Shown piece by piece: positions 4,797 to 29,048 of a stretch of DNA of 42,525 nt. The position numbers and the translations under genes are program-made. Below the pieces are notes generated by a model. The model had not been told where the DNA came from. It saw only the letters and a program-made list of their open reading frames with translations, and ran no database searches. The DNA comes from an uncultured bacterium (GTDB lineage: Bacteria > Patescibacteriota > Minisyncoccia > Phycocordibacterales > DATDWN01), in the NCBI GenBank assembly GCA_903861205.1, contig CAIOTC010000017.1, positions 1 through 42,525 on the forward strand. The letters are read 5' to 3'. Each line of letters starts with the position of its first letter. Within the stretch, counting starts at the first letter, position 1.

Positions 4797-7043
4797 ATGA
4801 CAAAACTTTTAATCGTTGAATCTCCGGCAAAAGCAAAAACAATTTCAAAATATTTGGACGGCAAGTACGAGGTGGTCGCCAGTGTCGGACACATTCGTGA
4901 TTTGCCGAAATCAAACAAAATCGCCATCGATATTCCAGGCGGTTTTATTCCGCATTACGAAATTTCCAAAGGCAAAGAAAAAATTGTTTCGGAAATAAGA
5001 TCGCTCGCTAAAAAAGCTGACATTGTCCTGCTAGCCACCGACCCCGACCGCGAAGGCGAGGCAATCGCTTGGCATATCGAACAGCTCATCAGAGGTGATT
5101 TTCCAAATTCCAAAGTCAAAAAAACGGAAACCGACGACAAAATTAAACGTGTCAGCTATCACGAAATCACCAAAGAAGCTATCGAAGAAGCTCTGGAACA
5201 TCCGAGGGAAATCGATCAGAATTTGCGCCAAGCCCAGGAAGCTCGACGCGTTTTGGACAGGCTTGTCGGCTACGATTTATCCGGACTCATCTGGAAAAAA
5301 GTGCGTTACGGACTTTCAGCCGGACGCGTTCAGTCGCCCGCTTTGCGCATCATCATGGAACGCGAGCGCGAAATCCGCGCTTTCAAATCGCACAAGTTCT
5401 GGGTTATTTCCGCCGATGTTATTCCCCAAGGTGACACCTTGGGGGAAAAGTTTACCGTTGTCTGCGAAAAAGAACCGACCATCAAGGGCGAGGTAGAGCA
5501 GATTATTTTGGACGCTGAAAAAGCCGGAAAAGAAAACAGCTGGTACGTCAAAGATGTCAAAGAAACGCAAGTTAAGAAAACTCCGCGACCACCGTTCATC
5601 ACTTCCACGCTCCAGCAGTCGGCCAGCACGCGTCTCGGTTTCGCTCCATCGCGTACAATGGGCATCGCTCAAAAACTTTACGAATCCGGTTACATCACAT
5701 ACATGCGCACAGACTCAACCAACCTCTCTCAGCTCGCGCTCGGCCAAATCGCCGGTGAAATAGAGAAAAGATTTGGTAAAGATTTTTTGCAGTTCAGAAA
5801 ATATGCAGCCAAAAGCAAAAATGCCCAGGAAGCCCACGAAGCAATTCGCCCGACGCACATGTCCGTTGAAAAAGCCGGGCACACCGATGAACAGCAAAAG
5901 TTGTACGAACTTATCTGGCACCGCACACTCGCTTCGCAGATGCGCGACGCCGAAACTTTGCGAACAAAAATCACAGCAAACGTGGCTGGCGACAAAGTTC
6001 CAGATTTTTCCTCTGTCGGTTCGCGTGTCATTTCTCCCGGCTGGCTTTTGGGCGACCCTGCTTCGCGAGGCGAAGATGTGGAATTACCGAAAGTAAAAAC
6101 TGATGAAAATCTTACGCTTGAAAAAGTTAGCACTGAGGAAAAAGAAACGGAACCGCCGACAAGATATTCCGAAGCCGGATTAGTCAAGGAATTGGAAAAA
6201 CGTGGCATCGGCCGACCTTCGACGTACGCTTCGATTATCAAAACGATCGAAGACCGCGGATACGTAGAAAAAATAAACAAAGCTCTTGTGCCGACGGACA
6301 CAGGCGATGTCGTTTCGTCATTTTTGGAAAAAAATTTCGAAAGTTACATCAGCGACGATTTCACTGCCGAGATGGAAGACAAACTCGACCTTATCGCTGA
6401 GGGCAAGGAAGACTACACCAAGATGCTGACAAAGTTTTACAAGCCGTTTTTGGCTGACGTCAAAGCCAAAGATAAATTGGACAAAGTGACAAACCTCGGC
6501 GACGCCGATCCAAAATTCAAATGTCCGATTTGCGGAGGTCCGATGATTATCAAACTTTCGCGTGGCGGGAAATTTTTGTCATGCGCCAAATATCCGGACT
6601 GCGACGGGGCGCTGACCATGGACGGACAGGAAATCAAAAAAGATGAACCGATCGGTGTTGATCCGGAAAGCGGTTTGCCAATTTTTGTCATGATTGGAAA
6701 ATATGGACCTTATGTACAGCTCGGCGAACGAGCCAGTGGCAAAGGTAGCACAAAGGCCGCCAAACCGAGAATGGCTAGTGTGCCAAAAGGCAAGGATTTG
6801 TCGACGATTACTTTGCAGGAAGCGCTAAAATATTTATCGCTGCCGCGCGTCCTCGGCGTCCATCCGGCTACGGGCGAAAAAATTTCCGCCAATGTCGGAA
6901 TGTTTGGACCGTACGTCGTTCACCAAAAAGATTTTCGGTCGCTCAAAGCGCCAGATGATGTTTACACCGTCGAACTCCCCCGCGCTCTGGAAATTTTCGC
7001 TCAAGAGAAGAAAAAACGCGGGTTTGCGAAGAAGAAAAAGTAA
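4797..7043 (+). CDS. topA: DNA topoisomerase I
   Basis: A TOPRIM start (LLIVESPAKAKTISKYL), the active-site region YITYMRTDS and a C-terminal Cys4 zinc ribbon (CPICGG...CAKYPDC) are present. The size is 748 aa. Confidence 0.95.
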   Translation: MTKLLIVESPAKAKTISKYLDGKYEVVASVGHIRDLPKSNKIAIDIPGGFIPHYEISKGKEKIVSEIRSLAKKADIVLLATDPDREGEAIAWHIEQLIRGDFPNSKVKKTETDDKIKRVSYHEITKEAIEEALEHPREIDQNLRQAQEARRVLDRLVGYDLSGLIWKKVRYGLSAGRVQSPALRIIMEREREIRAFKSHKFWVISADVIPQGDTLGEKFTVVCEKEPTIKGEVEQIILDAEKAGKENSWYVKDVKETQVKKTPRPPFITSTLQQSASTRLGFAPSRTMGIAQKLYESGYITYMRTDSTNLSQLALGQIAGEIEKRFGKDFLQFRKYAAKSKNAQEAHEAIRPTHMSVEKAGHTDEQQKLYELIWHRTLASQMRDAETLRTKITANVAGDKVPDFSSVGSRVISPGWLLGDPASRGEDVELPKVKTDENLTLEKVSTEEKETEPPTRYSEAGLVKELEKRGIGRPSTYASIIKTIEDRGYVEKINKALVPTDTGDVVSSFLEKNFESYISDDFTAEMEDKLDLIAEGKEDYTKMLTKFYKPFLADVKAKDKLDKVTNLGDADPKFKCPICGGPMIIKLSRGGKFLSCAKYPDCDGALTMDGQEIKKDEPIGVDPESGLPIFVMIGKYGPYVQLGERASGKGSTKAAKPRMASVPKGKDLSTITLQEALKYLSLPRVLGVHPATGEKISANVGMFGPYVVHQKDFRSLKAPDDVYTVELPRALEIFAQEKKKRGFAKKKK

Positions 7044-10028: not shown

Positions 10029-11060
10029 TTAACATAATATAATTTCAGGTTCAATTTCAAGATTAAGAGAAAACTTGTCTTTTACTGCTTTTTGTATTTC
10101 AGAAACAAATGACATAAGAGTGGCTATATTTTGAGCTGATTTATTTACAACCACCAAAGCATTTTTATAATACGTTCCAATGCCATTCTTTTCTACGCCT
10201 TTCAAGCCAGATTTTTCAATAAGCCAGCCCGATGGAATTTTGTAACCATTTTGATACTGAAAAAAAGGAATGCCCGAGAAAATCTTTTGTAATTCCTTTA
10301 ACTTTGGTTCATCAACAAAAACATTCTTGAAAAATGAACCGGCATTTGGAATCAATTTCGGATCAGGCAACTTTTCTAATCTGATTTTTTGAATCGTTTT
10401 TCGTATTTGTTTCAAAAGCGACATATTCGGAAATTCTGTTTTTATATCATTTAATGTTTCAGATACTTTCGGATATTTTGAGATTTGCGGAATTTCTTTT
10501 TTAAATTTGAAAACGACCGATTCGATGATGAATTTGCCTTTTAATCGGTTTTTAAAAATACTGTCGCGATAACCAAAACGACAATTTTCAGCAGAAATCG
10601 TTTCAAATTTTTTGGTAATTATATTGTATCCTTTGACGCTTTCAATAACATTCGAAACTTCCTGACCATAAGCACCGATATTTTGGACCGGCGAGGCTCC
10701 TACTGTGCCGGGTATGGACGATAAATTTTCAACCCCGGAAAAATCACTTTTAACCACAAAATCAACAAAATCATCCCAGATTTCTCCGCCACATACTTTT
10801 ATTCTGACGCACAAATCATTTTCATCTAAAATTTCAATTCCTTTGTTTTCCATTTTTATGCAAAATATGTCTGAGATAATGTCACCAATAACCAGATTTG
10901 ACCCGCCACCTAATACAAGTATCGACACTTTTTTATTTTCGGCAAAATTAGCACAATCCAAAATATCGCTCTCATTCTTACATACGCCAAAATATCTGGC
11001 AGATCCGCCAAGTCGTATCGTGGTATATTCCTTCAAACAAATGTATTCTTTTATTTGCAC
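10029..11060 (-). CDS. murB: UDP-N-acetylenolpyruvoylglucosamine reductase
   Basis: An FAD-binding start (TTIRLGGSARYF, VLGGGSNL) is followed by AGSFFKN and a C-terminal domain. The size is 343 aa. Confidence 0.9.
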   Translation of the reverse strand: MQIKEYICLKEYTTIRLGGSARYFGVCKNESDILDCANFAENKKVSILVLGGGSNLVIGDIISDIFCIKMENKGIEILDENDLCVRIKVCGGEIWDDFVDFVVKSDFSGVENLSSIPGTVGASPVQNIGAYGQEVSNVIESVKGYNIITKKFETISAENCRFGYRDSIFKNRLKGKFIIESVVFKFKKEIPQISKYPKVSETLNDIKTEFPNMSLLKQIRKTIQKIRLEKLPDPKLIPNAGSFFKNVFVDEPKLKELQKIFSGIPFFQYQNGYKIPSGWLIEKSGLKGVEKNGIGTYYKNALVVVNKSAQNIATLMSFVSEIQKAVKDKFSLNLEIEPEIILC

Positions 11061-11068
11061 CTAAAAAT

Positions 11069-11086
11069 TATATCATATATGATATA
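11069..11086. promoter_or_regulatory. 18-bp perfect palindrome TATATCATATATGATATA in the 29-bp murB/murA divergent spacer; candidate operator
   Basis: All 9 base pairs of symmetry were checked position by position. It lies 3 nt upstream of the ATG of the HTH-MurA fusion. Confidence 0.5.
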
Positions 11087-11089
11087 TAC

Positions 11090-12601
11090 ATGAACAACTC
11101 AAAAACACTCGGCGGTATTATAAAACAAGCCAGAGAAGAAACCGGTATGACGCAGATTGAATTCGCCAGGAAAATGAAAACGTCTCAGAGCGCCGTGGCG
11201 CGCATCGAAAGAGGCGGGCAAAATCTGACAACCGAAAACGTCCAAAAAATAAGTGAAGCACTCGGCAAAACGCTTTTAAAAGTTGAAAACAAAACCGATG
11301 ATTTTAAAATTGTCGGAGGCAAAAAACTTTCCGGTACGATACAGACCAACACCTCAAAAAACGGCGCGCTCGGACTATTTTGCGCTTCCCTGCTCAACAA
11401 ACAAGCCACGATTCTCCATGGCATTCCGCACATAGAAGAAATCTCCAGAATAATTGAAATTTTTCACAGCATCGGAGTAAAAGTGGAATGGATAAAAGAA
11501 AATTCAGTCAAAATCACTCCTCCACAAAAACTAAAATTGGAATCCCTGAACGCAGATTCGGCCTCAAAAATTCGTTCCGTCATAATGCTTATCGGAGCGG
11601 TCATTCACAAAGAGAAAAAATTTAAAATACCTCATGCGGGTGGGTGCAAAATGGGTGAGCGAACGATTTCCGCCCACAAATATGGACTGGAATCGCTTGG
11701 CGCTGACATAAAAACAAAAGAAAATTTCTACGAAATAACGGTTAAAAAATTAAAACCGAATGACGTCGTCCTCTACGAGGCCAGCGACACCGCTACTGAA
11801 AATTTGCTCATTGCTTCGGCTCTTATCCCCGGAAAAACCACCTTGAGATTTACTCCACCGAACTACCAAGTCCAAGAAGTGTGTTATTTTTTGGAAAAAT
11901 GCGGGGTGAAAATCGAAGGAATCGGCACGAGCACTTTGGTCATTCATGGCATAAATGAAATAAATTCACAAATTGAATATCACAACAGCGAAGACCCGAC
12001 CGAGTCAATGATGTTTATCGCTTCCGCGCTTGTGACGAATTCCAAACTCACAATCACCAGATGCCCGATTGATTTTCTTTCATTGGAAATTTTGAAGTTG
12101 GAAAAAATGGGAATGAAATATAAAAAAAGCAAAGTTTATTTTTCCAAAAACGAAAGGACGCGGCTTTGCGACATAACGATCTTTCCTTCCAAACTTGTGG
12201 CCTTGAAAGACAAAATTCACGCCTCGGCTTATCCGGGCATAAATACGGACAATTTGCCATTTTTCGTCCCAGTCGCTTCGGTGGCCGAGGGAAGCACTCT
12301 CATTCACGACTGGATGTGGGAAAACAGAGCAATATATTTTACCGAATTAAACAGGCTTGGCGCCGACATCACCCTTGCCGATCCGCACAGAGTTTTTGTA
12401 ACCGGACCTAGACAGCTGAAAGGCAACCAGATGGTTTGCCCGCCGGCACTGCGTCCATCCATGATGATTTTGGTGGCCATGCTGGGAGCGAAAGGCGAAT
12501 CGATTTTGCGAAATGTTTATGCCATAAATCGCGGCTACGAAAAAATCGCCGAACGCCTGAACTCCATCGGCGCGGATGTGAAGATAATAAGCGAGATATA
12601 A
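11090..12601 (+). CDS. murA: XRE-type HTH domain fused to UDP-N-acetylglucosamine 1-carboxyvinyltransferase (MurA)
   Basis: Residues 1-65 (GIIKQAREETGMTQIEFARKMKTSQSAVARIERG) form a Cro/C1 HTH. The rest is MurA (KIVGGKKLSGTI, catalytic-Cys loop HAGGCKMGERT). The size is 503 aa. Confidence 0.85.
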   Translation: MNNSKTLGGIIKQAREETGMTQIEFARKMKTSQSAVARIERGGQNLTTENVQKISEALGKTLLKVENKTDDFKIVGGKKLSGTIQTNTSKNGALGLFCASLLNKQATILHGIPHIEEISRIIEIFHSIGVKVEWIKENSVKITPPQKLKLESLNADSASKIRSVIMLIGAVIHKEKKFKIPHAGGCKMGERTISAHKYGLESLGADIKTKENFYEITVKKLKPNDVVLYEASDTATENLLIASALIPGKTTLRFTPPNYQVQEVCYFLEKCGVKIEGIGTSTLVIHGINEINSQIEYHNSEDPTESMMFIASALVTNSKLTITRCPIDFLSLEILKLEKMGMKYKKSKVYFSKNERTRLCDITIFPSKLVALKDKIHASAYPGINTDNLPFFVPVASVAEGSTLIHDWMWENRAIYFTELNRLGADITLADPHRVFVTGPRQLKGNQMVCPPALRPSMMILVAMLGAKGESILRNVYAINRGYEKIAERLNSIGADVKIISEI

Positions 12602-12906: not shown

Positions 12907-13797
12907 ATGCAAAAATTAATCGTCATACTCGGGCCAACATCCGGAGGAAAATCGGATACTGCGGTAAAAATCGCCAAGAAATTTGACGGGGAAATTATTT
13001 CGGCCGATTCGCGACAGGTATACAAAGGCCTCGACATTGGCACGGGAAAAATCACAAAGAAAGAAATGCGTGGCATTCCCCACCACATGCTTGACGTAGC
13101 AAATCCTAAAAAAAGATTTGATGTAGCGATGTGGCAAAAACAAACCAAAATAATAATTGCTGATATTTTTGCTCGCGGAAAATTACCAATCATCTGTGGT
13201 GGCACTGGATTTTATATCCAATCAATTGTCGACAATTTGGAATTGCCGGAAGTTCCGCCAAACAAAAAATTGCGAGAAAAATTGGAAAAGAAAACTTTAC
13301 CAGAACTTATTGAAATTTTAAAAAAGCTTGATCCGGAAAAATTGAAAACAATCGACACCAAAAATCCGGTCCGGCTTGTCCGCGCCATTGAGATTGCCAC
13401 CCAGCTCGGCTCCGTGCCAAAATTGCAAAAAAATAATAATGACTATGAAATTCTCCAAATTGGCCTAACATTTCCTGACAAAATTTTGAAAAAAAGAATT
13501 TTCATTCGCCTTCGAAGGCGAATGAAAATGGGAATGCTTGATGAGGCAAGAAAACTACACAAAGCAGGCTTGTCGTGGAAAAGGATGAATGAACTTGGTT
13601 TGGAATACAGGCACATGGCGTTACTTTTGAATAACAGAATGTCTCGTGAAGAATTCATCCAAAAATTGAACACTGAAATCTGGCATTACGCCCGCCGACA
13701 GTGGCAATGGTTTAAGCGCGACAAAAACATCAAATGGTTCTCGCCCACTGAAATCAACAAAATCGAAAAAGAAGTGGAAAAATTTATGAAAAAGTAG
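12907..13797 (+). CDS. miaA: tRNA dimethylallyltransferase. Start moved to MQKLIVILGPTSGGKS.
   Basis: P-loop GPTSGGKS and ISADSRQVYKGLDIGTGK are present. The upstream part of the track ORF runs through the terminator hairpin. Confidence 0.9.
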   Translation: MQKLIVILGPTSGGKSDTAVKIAKKFDGEIISADSRQVYKGLDIGTGKITKKEMRGIPHHMLDVANPKKRFDVAMWQKQTKIIIADIFARGKLPIICGGTGFYIQSIVDNLELPEVPPNKKLREKLEKKTLPELIEILKKLDPEKLKTIDTKNPVRLVRAIEIATQLGSVPKLQKNNNDYEILQIGLTFPDKILKKRIFIRLRRRMKMGMLDEARKLHKAGLSWKRMNELGLEYRHMALLLNNRMSREEFIQKLNTEIWHYARRQWQWFKRDKNIKWFSPTEINKIEKEVEKFMKK

Positions 13798-19148: not shown

Positions 19149-19383
19149 AGAACATCGCGAGCAGGAGAAATCCTGAATATGGCGTTTGCCTCTCTCGCGT
19201 GACTACGGAAAGTGAAATTCTTTCTGGGCTGGCGACAGCTCACAGTCGCAAGTCATTTGAGACCTGCGTAAGCAGACTCAATTATTTCCACAATCCGGGA
19301 GGCCAAAAGGCTAGAGGGTAAAGTGAGAAACCCTGACACAACTCCCCACCCAAGCCCGTGCCATTAAAAGTGCGGGCTTTTTT
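19149..19383 (+). ncRNA. Candidate structured RNA of about 235 nt (either an independent sRNA or the rnr 5' leader); class unknown
   Basis: It is bounded by the promoter above and by the terminator gcccgugc-cauuaaaa-gugcgggc-UUUUUU. That stem has two G.U pairs that exist only on the + strand. Internal hairpins are cgcgag...ctcgcg, gcgac-agctcaca-gtcgc, ctgc-gtaa-gcag and agggt...accct. Confidence 0.45.
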
Positions 19384-19430: not shown

Positions 19431-21443
19431 ATGAATAAGAAAACACTTACGGGACCGATATCAATCAATTCCAAGGGAATTGGTTTTTTTGATTTGCCGG
19501 ACAAAAAAGAGGAATCGCTGGAAATTCAGCCTGAGAATTTGGCGCGGGCTTTTCACGGAGATGTCGTTGAAGTCCAAAAGCTTGGTGGTCCTAAACCGAG
19601 AAAAAGTCTTGGTCGGGCGAGAGAAGTCAAAGAGCAAGCCAAAGTGGTCAGAATAATTTCTCGCGCCAAAACTCAATTCGTCGGCATAATCCAAAAAACA
19701 GACGACAAATCATTTTTGATTCCGGATGATAAAAGAATGTACGTGGATATTTTTATTGACCCAAAATCTTTAGCAAGGACAGTCCTTGCTAAAACTGAAA
19801 ACCAGAAAATTCTTGTAGAAATCACCGACTGGCCGGAAACGGAGAAAAATCCGCGCGGAAAAGTTGTTAAAGTCATCGGTACAGCCGGCGAAAACAACAC
19901 CGAGATGGAATCAATCGTTTTGGAAAAAGGTTTCCGAGTCGACTTCCCTGCCGAAGTTTTGGCCGAGGCGGAAAAAATTAAAAATGAATACAAAAGTCAT
20001 TTTGCCGAGGAAGTGAAAAATCGCCGCGACATGCGCGAAACTTTAACCATGACTATCGATCCTGCCGACGCCAAAGATTTTGACGATGCCATTTCTTTTA
20101 AAGAACTTTCCGACGGAACTTTTGAAATCGGCGTGCATATTGCCGACGTGTCATATTTCGTCACGCCCGGCACAGTGCTTGATCGCGAGGCGGAAAAACG
20201 AGGACTGTCAGTTTATCTCGTCGATCGAACTATTCCGATGTTGCCGGAAGTTTTAAGTAATGACCTTTGTTCTCTCAATCCAAACGAGGACAAGTTCACT
20301 TTTTCGGCCGTTTTCAAAATCGACAAAAATGCCAAGATTTTAGACAAATGGTTTGGCCGAACTGTCATTCACAGCGACAAAAGATTTTCATACGAAGACG
20401 CTCAGAAAGTTTTGGACAATGCGAGCTCACCTGGTGTCAACGGCGAAGCAACGTGGTCACCGGGTGTGGGCGCATTGTCCAAACTAAACAACCTCGCAAA
20501 AATTCTGGAGAAGCAAAAATTTGGCGCAGGCGCAATTAATTTTGAAACAGACGAAGTTAAATTCGTTTTGGACGCGGCCGGCAAACCTCTTTCAGTTTAC
20601 AGAAAAACTCGCCTGGACACGCACAAGCTTGTCGAGGAATATATGCTCCTGGCCAATCGCGCGGTCGCCGAACATATTTTCCATTCTCAAAATAACGAGT
20701 CCTTAGCAAGAACTGTTCTTGCTAAAAAACAAAGTGTTTACAGAATTCACGGCAAACCTGATCCGGAACGCATCGAAGCATTGGCGTTTTTTTTGAAAGC
20801 GCTTGGTTTTGATTTGCGAAACGAAAAAGGTTCTGTCACCTCGCGCGACATCAACAAACTGCTCAAGCAGGTGGAAGGCACACCGAACGAAGAACTGATC
20901 AAAACCGCCACCATTCGCAGTATGGCCAAAGCCGTTTACTCGACCAAAAATATCGGGCACTTCGGTCTGGCTTTCAGATTTTACACGCACTTCACCTCGC
21001 CTATTCGCCGATATCCCGATTTGCTGGTGCACAGATTTTTGGAACGCGAAATCGATGGCGGAAAAATTGCTCCAAATGAATACGAGAAATTTGAAAAGTC
21101 ATGCTTGGCACTCTCCGAACTGGAAAAGAAAGCCAGCGACGCAGAAAGAGCCAGCATCAAATACAAGCAGGTTGAATACATGCAATCGCATGTCGGCGAA
21201 ACTTTCCAAGGCACTATCACCGGCGTAACCGACTGGGGAATTTACATCGAGGAAAAAATTACCAAATGCGAAGGCATGGCAAAACTACGCGACCTGAATG
21301 ACGACTATTATGTCCTCGACGAAAAAAATTACACAATCCGCGGCCAGCGCACCGGCAAAAAATACACACTTGGTGATTCTGTCACATTCAAAGTTGTGGC
21401 GGCAGACATGGAGAAAAGAGTTTTGGATTACCAGATTTTGTAA
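19431..21443 (+). CDS. rnr: Ribonuclease R (RNB family 3'-5' exoribonuclease)
   Basis: The RNB core (TIDPADAKDFDDAIS, VYLVDRTIPMLP, FTSPIRRYPDLLVHR) and a C-terminal S1 domain are present. The size is 670 aa. Confidence 0.9.
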   Translation: MNKKTLTGPISINSKGIGFFDLPDKKEESLEIQPENLARAFHGDVVEVQKLGGPKPRKSLGRAREVKEQAKVVRIISRAKTQFVGIIQKTDDKSFLIPDDKRMYVDIFIDPKSLARTVLAKTENQKILVEITDWPETEKNPRGKVVKVIGTAGENNTEMESIVLEKGFRVDFPAEVLAEAEKIKNEYKSHFAEEVKNRRDMRETLTMTIDPADAKDFDDAISFKELSDGTFEIGVHIADVSYFVTPGTVLDREAEKRGLSVYLVDRTIPMLPEVLSNDLCSLNPNEDKFTFSAVFKIDKNAKILDKWFGRTVIHSDKRFSYEDAQKVLDNASSPGVNGEATWSPGVGALSKLNNLAKILEKQKFGAGAINFETDEVKFVLDAAGKPLSVYRKTRLDTHKLVEEYMLLANRAVAEHIFHSQNNESLARTVLAKKQSVYRIHGKPDPERIEALAFFLKALGFDLRNEKGSVTSRDINKLLKQVEGTPNEELIKTATIRSMAKAVYSTKNIGHFGLAFRFYTHFTSPIRRYPDLLVHRFLEREIDGGKIAPNEYEKFEKSCLALSELEKKASDAERASIKYKQVEYMQSHVGETFQGTITGVTDWGIYIEEKITKCEGMAKLRDLNDDYYVLDEKNYTIRGQRTGKKYTLGDSVTFKVVAADMEKRVLDYQIL

Positions 21444-21516: not shown

Positions 21517-21946
21517 AATCTCCCTTTTTTAAAGGGAGTGGCCGAAGGCCGAGGGATTTTTAGTGCATTCCACAATTTTTCTTACACAACTCTCTAAATT
21601 AGTTTTTATATCAATATCTCTGAATCTAATTATTTTGACTCCAGCATTCTTTAAAATCTCATCTCTCACCTCATCATTTTCTATTTTTGCATCATGACTA
21701 ATGCCGTCAATTTCAATTGCAAGATTTAATTTTGAACAATAAAAATCAACTATGTAGTTGTTGATAGGTCTCTGTCTCAAAAATTGGCAACCTAATTTTT
21801 TATCTTTTATTTCTTTCCATAGCAATACTTCAGATAATGTTGATTCGTTCCGTAACTTTTTGGAAAATTTTTTTAGATTTTTATTGTAAATGAGTTTCAT
21901 AAAATCCCTCCCCGCTTCGCGGTACTCCCTTTAAGAAAGGGAGATT
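21517..21946 (-). mobile_element. Candidate compact element: a DUF559 endonuclease gene bounded by inverted family-U units (21517-21558 and 21903-21946)
   Basis: The left end is aatctcccttttttaaagggagtggccgaaggccgagggatt. The reverse complement of the right end is aatctccctttcttaaagggagtaccgcgaagcggggagggatt. The unit pair at 29077-29172 shows the same two-end arrangement with only 12 nt between the ends. Confidence 0.5.
21529..21900 (-). CDS. DUF559 / Vsr-like (PD-(D/E)xK) endonuclease domain protein
   Basis: LLWKEIKDKKLGCQFLRQRPINNYIVDFYCSKLNLAIEIDGISHD...IIRF is the DUF559 pattern. The last 9 codons (NPSAFGHSL*) are encoded by the flanking repeat unit. Confidence 0.8.
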   Translation of the reverse strand: MKLIYNKNLKKFSKKLRNESTLSEVLLWKEIKDKKLGCQFLRQRPINNYIVDFYCSKLNLAIEIDGISHDAKIENDEVRDEILKNAGVKIIRFRDIDIKTNLESCVRKIVECTKNPSAFGHSL

Positions 21947-21956
21947 TGAATGCGGG

Positions 21957-24254
21957 TTATTTCGCCACGGCAACGGCTTGATCAAATGCGACCGAGAGAA
22001 GTTTCGAGCCACCACCGAGACCCATGGTTACGCCGTACAAAATCCCCGCACGGGACATTGTTTCGCGGTTGTGGGTAATGACAATGAGTTGCGAACGTTT
22101 GGAAAGATTTTCCACCATATCGCCATACTTTTTGGAATTGGCTTCGTCGAGAGCGGCGTCTGTTTCGTCTAGAATAATAAACGGCGGAGGATTGACTTGA
22201 GAGATGGCAAAAAGCAAAGCGATGGAAGTCAGTGCCCTCTCCCCGCCGGAAAGCATCATCAAACCTTTCACTTTCTTTTTCGGTAACACAACATCGATAT
22301 CAATCCCATCCTCACTTTCCGCTCCGGTTTCTTCAATGGCAAGGGCAGCCCTTGCCATTTCATCACCGTCTTCATTTTCAAATAGGTCATCAATTTCTTT
22401 TTTCTTGCGTTTTGGCGCGGAAATAACGGACAAGCTGGCCTCACCACCACCGAACATCAGAGCAAAATATTCTTTGAACTGCTGGTTGATTTTTTCCACG
22501 CCGGTTTTGAATTCGTTGGAAAGTCGTTCATCCAAATCTTTTATGAGATCTGTCAGCGAATCGGCCGAACCGGAAAGGTCAGTCAGCTCTTTTGCCAGAA
22601 ACTCATCTCGCTCCGAGGCATCAGTGTATTCTTTCATTACATCGGCCCCACCGATTCCGCCGGCATCTTCCAAACGAATTTTTATTTTTTCGATTGTTCG
22701 TCTGCGTTCTTCCTGATTTGCGCGTGGTTCGTCAAAATCAAAAACAAGCGACTCAAATTGCAAAACAGCCGTGCCAAGCATCATTCCAAGCTCTGTTAAT
22801 TCCCTATTGAAATCCTCTTTGACTATTCGCAAAGTTTCCTCCTCCGACTGCAAGCTGTGAATTTGCGATCTGACTTCCTGCTCCTCCGCCATGATTCTGA
22901 AAACCGCTTTTTCGGCGTCGCGATTGGTATCTTTTTCCGTGTTTATTTTTTCCTGTAAAGCCGAATACTCGCGGGACAATTTCGCTTCGTTTGCAATAAC
23001 ATCACCCGCTTCACTGGCAGCAATTTCCTTTTTTCTCCTCAAATCCGCCAAATCTTTTTGGGCTTCAACCAAAAGCGACGTATCCACCTTGTCTTTATTA
23101 CTTTCAATAAAATCTGACAAAAGTTTTCCAATTTCATCAATTTTCCTTATCAAAATATCCACTTTCTCCTGGTCCCAGGTGTCACCTGGGACCAGTTTTT
23201 TGGAATCGGAAATTATTTGTTCTATTTCTTTTTGAACAACTTCGACAGAAACAAGCGTGACTGTTTTGTGCAAATATGAGTTGGCCAGTTCCTCCTGCTT
23301 TTTTATCATTCGGGCCAAGGAGGTTATCTCACCGTCCAGTTCGCCGGACTGACGTAAAAGCTCGTCTTTCTTTTTTCGCGTTTCGTGAAGTTCCCTCTCG
23401 AGTGAAATCAGTTCGTCCGACATGACATCGCGATGTTGTGCGCCTTCCAAAATTTTCTTGGCTTCGGAGAGTTCCTCTTGCAACTTTTTTTCCTGTTTTT
23501 CCAGCGGATGTTTTTTGCCGGAAATATTTTTCTCAATGCGCTTTATATATTCGTCCTCGCGTTTGCAATACTCCAGCGCTTTATCCTGCAAATCTTTTTT
23601 CATTTCAAGCGTCTTCTCCACTTTTTCCACCTGCTTTTTGAGGAATTTGATATGCGGCAAAATTTCTCGTCGAAGAGATTCCACTTGTGCAATATTTTCA
23701 CGAGTTTTCAAAAGTTTTTTCTCACTTTCCTGTTTTTTGTATTGATAAAGTTTCAAACCGAGCGCATCCTCAATCATGGCTTTGCGTTCTTTGATGCTGG
23801 CATTCAAAATTCTGTCCGCTTCGCCCTGCGAAATAATGTGATGTCCGGACGAACCGATATGCGCCGAATGCAAAAGTTCCAACACATCTCGCAAACAAAC
23901 TTGCGAACCGTTGATGGAATACTCGTTGACACCGTCGCGATGCACAACACGTTCAATGATCACCTCCTCGAAATCCACAGGTAGAAATTTGGATTTGTTG
24001 TCGAAAATTATTTTGACGCTTGCCCGATTCGCTCTAGGCAAATCCCCCGCGCCGTTAAAAATCAAATCTTCGCCTTTTTTGCCACGCAGGGATTTGATCG
24101 ACTGCTCGCCAAGAACAAAAGAAAACGCCTCGGCCACATTGGACTTGCCCGAACCATTCGGCCCAACCACCGCAGTAACATTCGAAGTGAAAAGTAATTC
24201 GCTCTTTTTGGCGAAACTTTTGAATCCGGTGAGTTCAATAGATTTCAGATACAT
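21957..24254 (-). CDS. smc: SMC-family chromosome segregation ATPase, short form (765 aa)
   Basis: The Walker A head (VVGPNGSGKSN), long coiled coil, signature motif LSGGERALT and Walker B FIILDETDAALD are present. I could not recognise a canonical hinge. Confidence 0.8.
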   Translation of the reverse strand: MYLKSIELTGFKSFAKKSELLFTSNVTAVVGPNGSGKSNVAEAFSFVLGEQSIKSLRGKKGEDLIFNGAGDLPRANRASVKIIFDNKSKFLPVDFEEVIIERVVHRDGVNEYSINGSQVCLRDVLELLHSAHIGSSGHHIISQGEADRILNASIKERKAMIEDALGLKLYQYKKQESEKKLLKTRENIAQVESLRREILPHIKFLKKQVEKVEKTLEMKKDLQDKALEYCKREDEYIKRIEKNISGKKHPLEKQEKKLQEELSEAKKILEGAQHRDVMSDELISLERELHETRKKKDELLRQSGELDGEITSLARMIKKQEELANSYLHKTVTLVSVEVVQKEIEQIISDSKKLVPGDTWDQEKVDILIRKIDEIGKLLSDFIESNKDKVDTSLLVEAQKDLADLRRKKEIAASEAGDVIANEAKLSREYSALQEKINTEKDTNRDAEKAVFRIMAEEQEVRSQIHSLQSEEETLRIVKEDFNRELTELGMMLGTAVLQFESLVFDFDEPRANQEERRRTIEKIKIRLEDAGGIGGADVMKEYTDASERDEFLAKELTDLSGSADSLTDLIKDLDERLSNEFKTGVEKINQQFKEYFALMFGGGEASLSVISAPKRKKKEIDDLFENEDGDEMARAALAIEETGAESEDGIDIDVVLPKKKVKGLMMLSGGERALTSIALLFAISQVNPPPFIILDETDAALDEANSKKYGDMVENLSKRSQLIVITHNRETMSRAGILYGVTMGLGGGSKLLSVAFDQAVAVAK

Positions 24255-28355: not shown

Positions 28356-29048
28356 TCAAACCAGGTTTTTGCAAAAAGATTTGCGATGAAAAAGGGAGAG
28401 ACCGTGAGTTTGAATGGCAGTGCGATGCGCGAGCGTGCCATAACCTTTGTGAATATGAAAATTGTAAAGCGGATATTTTTTGCTCGCTTTGCACATTAGT
28501 TTGTCACGCGAAACTTTTGCCAAAATCGACGCCCAGGCGATAATTTTTTCTTTTTCGTCGCCTTTTATAATAGTAAATTGTTTTACTTGTTTAACAGAAT
28601 ATCCGTTTGTAAGTTCAGCTGGAACTTTTAATCCCCCATCTAATAAAATTTTTAATTTAAAATTTTTAATTTTTAAATAATTTTTAATGTCTAAATTTCC
28701 AAAACCTTTTGCAATGGCTTTTTTGATGCATTTGGAAATTCCGATTTTGTCGATTTCTTTGTTTGAGATATGAACAATTTGAGCTTGCAGAAGGGCACCT
28801 TCTGCAGAATTCGTGCAGAAGGTGCCCTTCTGCAACTGTTCCAAGACTTTTGCATACTTCTCGCGAGATTCCGGAGAAAGTTTTTTGCTGTCTTTGCCGA
28901 GTGGTGGCAAACGCCCCGCCACACCGGCGGGCAAGTTGTTTCGCTTCAGTTTGGCGTACAATTTTTCCTCACACATCACAATCCCCACCGTCACAGGCCC
29001 TGCCAATGGTCCCCTCCCAACTTCGTCAATGCCGATAATGTAGTTCAT
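28356..29048 (-). CDS. rnhB: Ribonuclease HII. Start moved to MNYIIGIDEVGRGPLAGPV.
   Basis: GIDEVGRGPLAGPV, DSKKLS and ASILAKVSRD are RNase HII motifs. The gene carries a 51-nt double hairpin and an AT-rich in-frame block. Confidence 0.9.
   Translation of the reverse strand: MNYIIGIDEVGRGPLAGPVTVGIVMCEEKLYAKLKRNNLPAGVAGRLPPLGKDSKKLSPESREKYAKVLEQLQKGTFCTNSAEGALLQAQIVHISNKEIDKIGISKCIKKAIAKGFGNLDIKNYLKIKNFKLKILLDGGLKVPAELTNGYSVKQVKQFTIIKGDEKEKIIAWASILAKVSRDKLMCKASKKYPLYNFHIHKGYGTLAHRTAIQTHGLSLFHRKSFCKNLV

Follow-up and report, generated by a model that had tools for sequence, protein, structure and literature searches.

Perfect palindromes in the RNase R gene of a Patescibacteria genome are probably translated copies of a dispersed REP/RAYT-like hairpin repeat

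The rnr gene for ribonuclease R (RNase R) of an uncultured member of the Patescibacteria lies on a 42,525-nucleotide (nt) stretch of DNA (contig CAIOTC010000017.1, positions 1 to 42,525), which is called the window here. This gene contains the same 23-nt perfect palindrome twice. We assign both copies, with high confidence, to a family of short hairpin repeats that is dispersed over the genomes of Patescibacteria and resembles the repetitive extragenic palindromic (REP) sequences and REP-associated tyrosine transposases (RAYTs) of other bacteria. The rnr palindromes are probably translated, harmless passenger copies of this REP/RAYT-like repeat, which occurs phylum-wide in Patescibacteria (Paceibacteria/Parcubacteria group). 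Our confidence in the mode of spread and in the passenger status of the copies is moderate. The features on which the analysis centers are the following.

19431-21443, + strand: rnr, encoding RNase R (670 amino acids (aa); OB_RNB, CSD2, RNB and S1 domains), host gene of both copies
19770-19792, no strand assigned: REP-like hairpin copy 1, G-C variant, TTAGCAAGGACAGTCCTTGCTAA, an exact match to the family core
20703-20725, no strand assigned: REP-like hairpin copy 2, A-T variant, TTAGCAAGAACTGTTCTTGCTAA, with the same family core
22335-22359, no strand assigned: diverged family member, AATGGCAAGGGC-A-GCCCTTGCCATT, translated as MARAALAI in an SMC-like gene (21957-24254, - strand)

The original prediction placed two 23-nt perfect palindromes in one rnr gene, both encoding SLARTVLAK, and its coordinates and translation proved correct. 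The two copies share the reading frame and the peptide S-LARTVLAK and differ only at element positions 9, 12 and 15 (AGG/AGA, ACA/ACT and GTC/GTT), all of which are third codon positions; position 9 pairs with position 15. Copy 1, whose perfect palindrome widens to 25 nt (19769-19793), encodes LARTVLAK at residues 114-121, which belong to a loop of the CSD2 domain, and copy 2 encodes it at residues 425-432, within the RNB domain past the long helix 396-421. The corresponding RNA hairpins have predicted folding free energies (dG) of -14.0 kcal/mol (z -6.3) and -10.7 kcal/mol (z -4.4), respectively. No match to the element was found in 100 dinucleotide shuffles of the window, even when 3 mismatches were allowed. 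The window holds 2 exact copies and 1 variant in 42.5 kb and is rich in perfect palindromes in general, with 14 records having an arm of at least 11 nt as opposed to 0 in the shuffles, several of them within open reading frames (ORFs). Five other public assemblies carry rnr DNA that is 100% identical to that of the window and hence the palindromes are not an assembly artefact. As there is no polymorphism in rnr among these five assemblies, they carry no population information. Rfam had no match in rnr or in its upstream spacer.

A search for the family core TTAGCAAGRAC-N-GTYCTTGCTAA, proposed along with the original prediction, was run on the GTDB species-representative genomes with the pattern TTAGCAAGNACNGTNCTTGCTAA, which has 20 fixed bases and for which ~0.5 matches are expected by chance in 596 Gb. 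It returned 41 sites in 37 stretches, and every source is a metagenome-assembled genome (MAG) of Patescibacteria. The labels of the carrier MAGs include Paceibacterota, Zambryski-, Nomura-, Taylor-, Staskawicz- and Colwellbacteria as well as some Saccharibacteria. Between 1 and 5 exact copies were found per MAG, a count that covers exact cores only and comes from incomplete MAGs. In the JGI metagenomes, a slightly relaxed pattern, in which the outermost arm pair was left unconstrained, gave at least 120 stretches with at least 142 distinct copies; the metagenome counts out of 142 (or 141) given below are among the matches listed. Viral contigs contained no copies of the palindrome. The idea that the element is copied as a unit is thus borne out, as it belongs to a family of repeats dispersed over the genomes of many Patescibacteria. 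Overall, about 85-90% of the copies are intergenic: in the genome set, 37 of 41 fall outside ORFs, next to genes that are variously arranged in tandem, convergently or divergently, and in the metagenome set, 19 of 142 fall in ORFs of at least 150 aa. Many intergenic copies are found 28-48 nt upstream of start codons. The flanks are variable and show no consistent T-run.

Some of the retrieved loci also carry lone half-sites, i.e. single arms, repeated in tandem beside full palindromes (L011 at 3626, L007 at 1316, L008 at 3014, L014 at 4589, L020, L022 and L028 at 1618-1725). In L028, a series of left arms precedes a series of right arms, which results in a nested composite hairpin. Such an arrangement suggests stepwise growth by slippage or fold-back copying.

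The arms of the element covary. The inner variable pair (positions 9/15) is either G-C (24) or A-T (17) in all 41 genome copies. Among the 142 metagenome copies, it is G-C in 70, A-T in 59, a single-step intermediate (G.T or A.C) in 10 and something else in 3, so that 129 are of the Watson-Crick type. The outermost pair is Watson-Crick in 99 of 141 copies, where 35 are expected, and it takes all four forms (C-G 28, T-A 28, G-C 24 and A-T 19). Inner and outer pair types are found in all eight possible combinations, and diverged copies stay perfectly symmetric. Pairing reaches two to three bases past the core at a falling frequency, and some copies are perfect across 33-37 nt with unrelated outer sequences. 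This covariation is the signature of hairpin constraint or of self-templated copying and not that of a protein operator. The original prediction had explained the symmetry of the two rnr copies by a G>A change compensated by C>T. Maintenance of pairing holds at the level of the family, in which two independent arm pairs covary, but the compensatory event between the two rnr copies does not, as these represent two standing family variants. The G-C and A-T forms are a family-wide dimorphism and coexist in single MAGs, and hence no compensatory change in situ is needed; the two rnr copies are more simply explained as two variants of the family.

The shared frame and the shared peptide follow from the element itself. 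Frame 2 begins with T-TAG and frame 3 finishes with TGC-TAA, so that frame 1 alone is open, and it reads LARTVLA in either orientation. Positions 9, 12 and 15, at which the copies vary, lie 3 nt apart and fall on the wobble positions of frame 1 (AGR, ACN and GTY). Because frames 2 and 3 hold stop codons and both orientations read LARTVLA, the frame and the peptide are forced, and selection, whether on the peptide or on synonymous sites, is not required to explain them. The common frame and the synonymous nature of the changes, which had been put forward as evidence of selection, therefore carry no weight: the stops dictate the former and the 3-nt spacing dictates the latter.

The sole recurrent neighbour of the palindrome is a gene for a protein of ~225 aa. 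Two of the three members compared with the Pfam family Y1_Tnp (PF01797, IS200-like) scored above its cutoff of 23 bits (26.8 and 38.1 bits). The HUH motif NHFH(L/I)L and the tyrosine motif Y(I/L)H(L/I)N(P/V) are both kept, in 7 of 7 and in 30 of 30 sequences of two sets, and the protein has a conserved C-terminal extension. All 30 members examined match the NCBIfam model REP_Tyr_transpos (NF047646) at ~29-32 bits, and this is the only transposase model that they match; the NCBIfam models of IS200/IS605 were matched by none of the 30. The palindrome is present on both sides of the transposase gene in L006, L022, L025, L026 and L012, and in 11 of the 20 metagenome loci that contain the gene. The geometry is regular, with an upstream gap to the start codon that is fixed at ~29 nt and a downstream copy located 0-20 nt past the stop codon. 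The central bases of the flanking copies gave no orientation signal, being complementary in ~8 units and identical in 7. The family comprises 2378 clusters at 90% identity, nearly all known from one contig each; all the named ones belong to Patescibacteria and are annotated merely as "transposase". Two copies found in one MAG (JANPIZ01; L021 and L022) are 74% identical. RAYTs are single-copy and diverged, each with its own repeat (PMC3337134), and the behaviour of the Patescibacteria protein, as far as our comparisons go, would match that of RAYTs and not that of an active insertion sequence (IS).

One of these loci has an unusual arrangement. Positions 5632-7109 of L026 hold the RAYT-like gene three times in tandem, once truncated and twice in a longer form, with a palindrome between the copies. 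One of the copies is ended early by the palindrome, which is read through as ...EGLARTVLATGF.

The palindrome is also translated in genes other than rnr. In-frame copies, with Pfam-checked hosts, are found in a Sua5/YrdC gene (L032), in the inter-domain region of GatB (L080/L147), in a GT4 glycosyltransferase (L097/L148), in MYG1 (L050/L125) and in a class-V aminotransferase (Aminotran_5; L141). The diverged member in the SMC-like gene of the window shares the core GCAAGG.C-N-G.CCTTGC with the family and has 3+3 differences from the consensus and 0 mismatches between its arms. It is a clean insertion of 8 aa (24 nt) that is missing from both syntenic SMC orthologues (L047 and L048). In GatB, the tract PE-LARTVLAK-SLP is collinear with PD-FAPEALRR-AMP of orthologues, and the net change in length is 0. 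The GatB carriers fall into three separate clades in a tree calculated with the tract masked, yet they have an identical extended tract. A closer look at this site is afforded by two near-isogenic groundwater strains, one of which carries the palindrome (L169, whose protein is found on at least 24 contigs) and one of which does not (L171). Both loci are 4401 nt long without indels and differ at 86 positions, 23 of which lie inside one tract of ~55 nt around the palindrome; the remaining differences are likewise clustered in a few 100-nt bins. Such a mosaic, as read from the two sequences, is typical of frequent short-patch homologous recombination in a population.

Arm conservation was considered as a measure of selection in pairs of loci that both carry the element (GatB L080/L147, GT4 L097/L148, MYG1 L050/L125 and L124/L157), in which the arms are 100% and the flanks 76-99% identical. 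We rejected it because both members of each pair had been retrieved by an exact pattern and because the GatB tract is shared by recombination. No pairs of filled and empty sites were found among the retrieved loci, except at rnr.

A conserved LARTVLAK motif of RNase R had been named as the observation that would overturn the original prediction. LARTVLAK is missing at both sites from the 29 orthologues in a 30-sequence alignment that includes the window protein, and the pattern [LIMV]AR[TA][VA]LA has no match in 119 other RNase R homologues. The window protein is thus the sole carrier among 120, and the peptide is ruled out as a conserved RNase R motif. At site 1, the orthologues have DPKS-FGKI/AEKT/TEKI-... 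and are 4 residues shorter than the window protein (net +4 aa in the window). At site 2, they have SQNEAS-TATSK-K or similar, with a net gain of +3 to +5 aa in the window. Both sites are loops in which other orthologues hold lineage-specific insertions of their own. Relative to the orthologue consensus, the window protein has two further lineage-specific extra segments, at residues ~55-63 and ~335-350, and the extra segment at 20418-20477 of the DNA folds as well (dG -29.6, z -3.6). In the AlphaFold model of RNase R, which is of moderate confidence (mean predicted local distance difference test score (pLDDT) of 67.6), all four extra segments coincide with local dips in pLDDT between regular secondary-structure elements, and copy 2 lies within a low-confidence segment, 423-443. 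The organism is placed near Zambryskibacteria/Paceibacteria within the Patescibacteria, and the best non-self homologue of the window protein is 77% identical to it; 5 nt past the rnr stop codon, its contig (L038) carries a variant copy of the element, TTCGCAAGGGTTGTCCTTGCGAA, at 6486-6508.

Other rnr orthologues have lineage-specific in-frame hairpin inserts of their own. Two of them are present in L046: a 129-nt insert at 2393-2521, which is a hairpin with perfect arms of 32 bp (dG -72, z -11.6), and an 87-nt insert at 1907-1993 (z -6.9). L048 has a 129-nt insert at 11006-11134 (z -7.1). The 129-nt inserts of L046 and L048 occupy the same position in the protein and differ in arm sequence with their pairing retained. 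The insert at site 2 of L047 does not fold, so that not all insertions in rnr orthologues are hairpins. In this clade, DNA able to form hairpins appears to give rise to protein insertions quite generally.

These findings can be accommodated by the following scheme. The hairpin would form in single-stranded DNA and would be recognised by the transposase homologue. New sites would be reached from an existing copy by a templated process, and not by fixed-length cut-and-paste, which is disfavoured by net changes that differ from gene to gene (+8 aa in SMC, +3 to +5 aa in rnr and 0 aa in GatB). The hairpin-bearing tract would overwrite native sequence, possibly by ectopic template switching or by short-patch conversion. 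Template switching is known to make perfect stems and paired changes in a single event (PMC8794818, PMC5453318), and it would also account for the palindromic outer flanks and for a length-neutral palindrome in miaA, which is described below. Once the tract is inside a gene, homologous recombination would then carry it from strain to strain, as GatB illustrates. Genic copies would survive because the element can be read through in one frame whichever way it is oriented, and what they add to the protein would be a bland, helix-prone octapeptide, LARTVLA(K/N). In rnr, two copies, one of each common variant, would have settled in surface loops that tolerate insertions, where they are probably neutral or nearly neutral passengers.

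Several observations weigh against this interpretation. The scores of the transposase family, at ~30 bits, are far under the NCBIfam RAYT cutoff of 80. No homologue of the transposase is encoded in the 42.5-kb window, and a cognate enzyme in this genome is therefore assumed. Sequence and profile searches with the transposase against the PDB reached no solved HUH structure, and its AlphaFold model, with a pLDDT of 43.5, is too poor for a comparison. The 1-5 exact copies per MAG are few next to the hundreds usual for classical REPs, and no REP doublets (REPINs) were seen. Simple insertion by a transposase does not account for the variable net lengths, among which is the exactly length-neutral replacement in GatB. 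The borders of the rnr insertions are blurred, the closest orthologue being 77% identical and the five additional assemblies being the same as the window. Native coding sequence probably accounts for a few of the pattern matches, among them IARTVLAN in the signature region of an ABC-ATPase (L073), which is of the mismatched G.T type.

Alternative explanations give the rnr copies a local role or a local origin. The hairpins in the rnr mRNA could be functional, with the decay or translation of the message depending on RNase R activity and the gene thus regulating itself. RNase R and PNPase of E. coli remove mRNA containing REPs, and RNase R is known to act on structured REP RNA (review PMC12320835); the presence of two copies in one gene and the variant copy next to rnr in the contig of the closest orthologue (L038) are also in line with such a loop. 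However, no orthologue has intragenic copies, the same element resides in unrelated genes, including those of GatB, Sua5, GT4, MYG1 and SMC, and internal hairpins are unwound by translating ribosomes, all of which makes autoregulation highly unlikely. We give still less credence to selection for the hairpin specifically in rnr, where one copy would have been derived from the other by G>A and then a compensating C>T. Both copies are indeed perfect hairpins with stable predicted folds and pairing is clearly kept in the family. But the G-C and A-T forms are standing variants (24/17 of 41 and 70/59 of the 142 listed) that occur together in single genomes, ~85-90% of the copies are intergenic and unrelated to rnr, the frame and the peptide are dictated by stop codons, and the five identical assemblies supply no variation in rnr. 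The original prediction had also allowed for selection on the DNA/RNA hairpin itself, and nothing in the data shows selection on structure in the rnr mRNA.

Less probable again is a purely local origin, in which each palindrome was made by replication template switching (fold-back copying of an arm) without any dispersed element. A single event of this kind yields perfect stems together with paired changes (PMC8794818, PMC5453318), and several observations are of the kind that it would produce: the 32-nt miaA palindrome is length-neutral relative to its orthologue, the net gain of 12 nt at rnr site 1 equals one arm, one arm loosely aligns with orthologue residues at both rnr sites, and the outer flanks of many copies are palindromic past the core, fading with distance. 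It cannot, however, yield the same 23-mer twice in rnr and at ~180 sites elsewhere, it is at odds with the whole-palindrome 24-nt insertions in SMC, and it leaves the association with the transposase gene unexplained. Template switching is nevertheless a possible way in which copies are kept, extended or copied from an ectopic template. A related candidate, inverted duplication of an ancestral half-site as the sole cause, is ruled out by the dispersed family and the whole-palindrome insertions in SMC. Finally, the palindrome could be the operator of a dimeric transcription factor or an intrinsic terminator, in which case the rnr copies would be internal regulatory sites. Many intergenic copies do lie 28-48 nt upstream of start codons, a simple scan calls both rnr copies terminator-like on the minus strand, and the outer bases TTAGCA...TGCTAA presumably resemble the CIRCE element. 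Against this, the outer arm pair takes all four Watson-Crick forms with pairing kept, which is the signature of a hairpin; no downstream gene recurs besides the transposase; the copies are found in convergent, tandem and divergent contexts and inside genes; and they lack a consistent T-run, whereas the real terminators of this genome are GC stems flanked by A/T. This explanation is hardly credible and is the least probable of all those considered.

A dispersed REP/RAYT-like repeat, which we prefer to these alternatives, can be compared with several known systems. The REP/REPIN-RAYT systems of Proteobacteria (E. coli, Pseudomonas; PMC3337134) are likewise built on a short, hairpin-capable palindrome that is dispersed mainly between genes. 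Its copies flank a diverged HUH/Y1 homologue with the HUH and tyrosine motifs, which in Patescibacteria also appears to be single-copy, each transposase type has its own repeat, and the stems are kept by covariation. In contrast to the imperfect palindromes of REPs, the arms of the Patescibacteria element are perfect over 11-13 bp around a single central base. No REPIN doublets were seen in the family, and there are 1-5 exact copies per MAG rather than hundreds. Furthermore, the core is common to many candidate orders of a phylum-level radiation, whereas REPs are species-specific; the transposase, with its ~225 aa and conserved C-terminal extension, scores under the curated RAYT cutoff; and ~10% of the copies are genic and are translated. 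The element fits best as a new variety of REP/RAYT-like system, in Patescibacteria, which is unusual for its translation inside essential genes and its phylum-wide conservation.

The translated copies have a parallel in the Rickettsia palindromic elements (RPEs), which are ~100-150 bp long, encode ~30-50 aa, lack an associated transposase and occur only in Rickettsia. They are said to have been described by Ogata et al. in Science in 2000. Both kinds of element are palindromic selfish repeats that sit in frame in housekeeping genes and are translated and tolerated in surface-exposed segments. The Patescibacteria element differs in being 23-25 nt long (8 aa), in occurring in Patescibacteria only and in its link to a Y1 transposase homologue. 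RPEs are mentioned in papers on Rickettsia, for example in PMC1779305.

The resemblance to IS200/IS605 elements lies in an HUH/Y1 transposase (PF01797) that is bracketed by hairpins, in a unit of ~740 nt that is near the length of IS200. Unlike those elements, the family has no identical multi-copy units (the two copies in one MAG are 74% identical), the same symmetric palindrome is found on both sides instead of distinct left and right ends, there is no match to the NCBIfam IS200/IS605 models, and solo hairpins far outnumber the gene. A further likeness is to palindromes that arise within coding sequence. In the PARCEL repeats of Mollicutes, both strands reportedly encode a similar peptide. 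Template switching creates and maintains hairpins (PMC8794818, PMC5453318), coding palindromes are found in the mitochondria of Nematomorpha (PMC6649704), and PARCEL is a palindromic coding repeat (PMC2996958); what these cases share with our element is the presence of perfect inverted repeats in coding sequence. As in template-switch hairpins, paired changes keep the stems of our element perfect and some of its tracts, like the palindrome in miaA, are length-neutral (GatB). All these cases are local or gene-specific, whereas the 23-mer described here is one specific sequence that turns up at unconnected loci across many genomes and goes together with a transposase gene.

Most of what is known of REPs and RAYTs comes from Proteobacteria, in which being extragenic and species-specific is part of the definition of the repeats, and we found no paper tying either to Patescibacteria. 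A REP-like hairpin and a RAYT-like gene are here conserved over a large part of the Candidate Phyla Radiation (CPR), and no paper linking the two was found. With about one in ten copies translated inside essential genes, the family would be the second natural case, after the RPEs, of selfish palindromes turned into protein segments, and at 8 aa the smallest such translated palindrome yet. How such tracts get into genes and spread there can be approached concretely through the near-isogenic GatB pair. The data also suggest that proteins encoded in these reduced genomes commonly vary in length through hairpin-forming DNA, and insertions of this kind bear on the annotation, alignment-based phylogeny and structure prediction of CPR proteins. 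A much broader picture can be drawn, in which Patescibacteria carry a phylum-wide hairpin replicator of ~24 nt that is tied to a distinct RAYT-like Y1 clade, is patch-written into housekeeping genes as an octapeptide, templates its own arms, recombines between strains and is a general engine of hairpin-encoded insertions, with the rnr pair coupling the message to RNase R activity. Taken as a whole, we consider this picture unlikely.

The window contains other palindromes in coding sequence. A second, unrelated one in the SMC gene (23169-23195), encoding LVPGDTWD, is a clean 8-aa insertion relative to the two syntenic orthologues. It shares the core AGGTG-N-CACCT, encoding P-x-G-D-T, with a palindrome in topA (5424-5444), which has a net gain of +3 aa. 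Neither the AGGTG-N-CACCT palindromes nor the other palindrome families of the window recurred in ~1 Mb of other Patescibacteria DNA. In miaA, a 32-nt perfect palindrome at 13498-13529, ATTTTCATTCGCCTTCGAAGGCGAATGAAAAT, encodes IFIRLRRRMKM in place of IKSRLENRLLA of the L009 orthologue without a change in length, and looks like the in-situ template-switch type. The RNase HII gene has two 21-nt palindromes, 7 nt apart, in its coding sequence (28786-28806 and 28814-28834), which read TGCAGAAGG-GCA-CCTTCTGCA and its exact reverse complement. An 18-nt perfect palindrome in serS (2704-2721), TGTGTGAGGCCTCACACA, spans conserved residues, LCEASH, at which orthologues show no indel; chance may explain it, with ~0.16 such palindromes expected in the window.

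The surroundings of rnr show two more features. The spacer between clpB and rnr is unusually long, at 505 nt, and has no Rfam match. It houses a terminator-like hairpin at 19352-19379 on the + strand, AAGCCCGTGC...GCGGGCTT followed by TTTTCATTTC, ~50 nt upstream of the rnr start. Between rnr and the SMC gene lies a gene for a 123-aa protein similar to DUF559 and REase_MTES_1575 (Vsr-type endonuclease fold; 21529-21900, - strand). In L048 rnr and SMC are adjacent with no gene between them and in L047 the gap holds a different ORF of 126 aa, and for this reason the DUF559-like gene looks, from gene order, like a local insertion.

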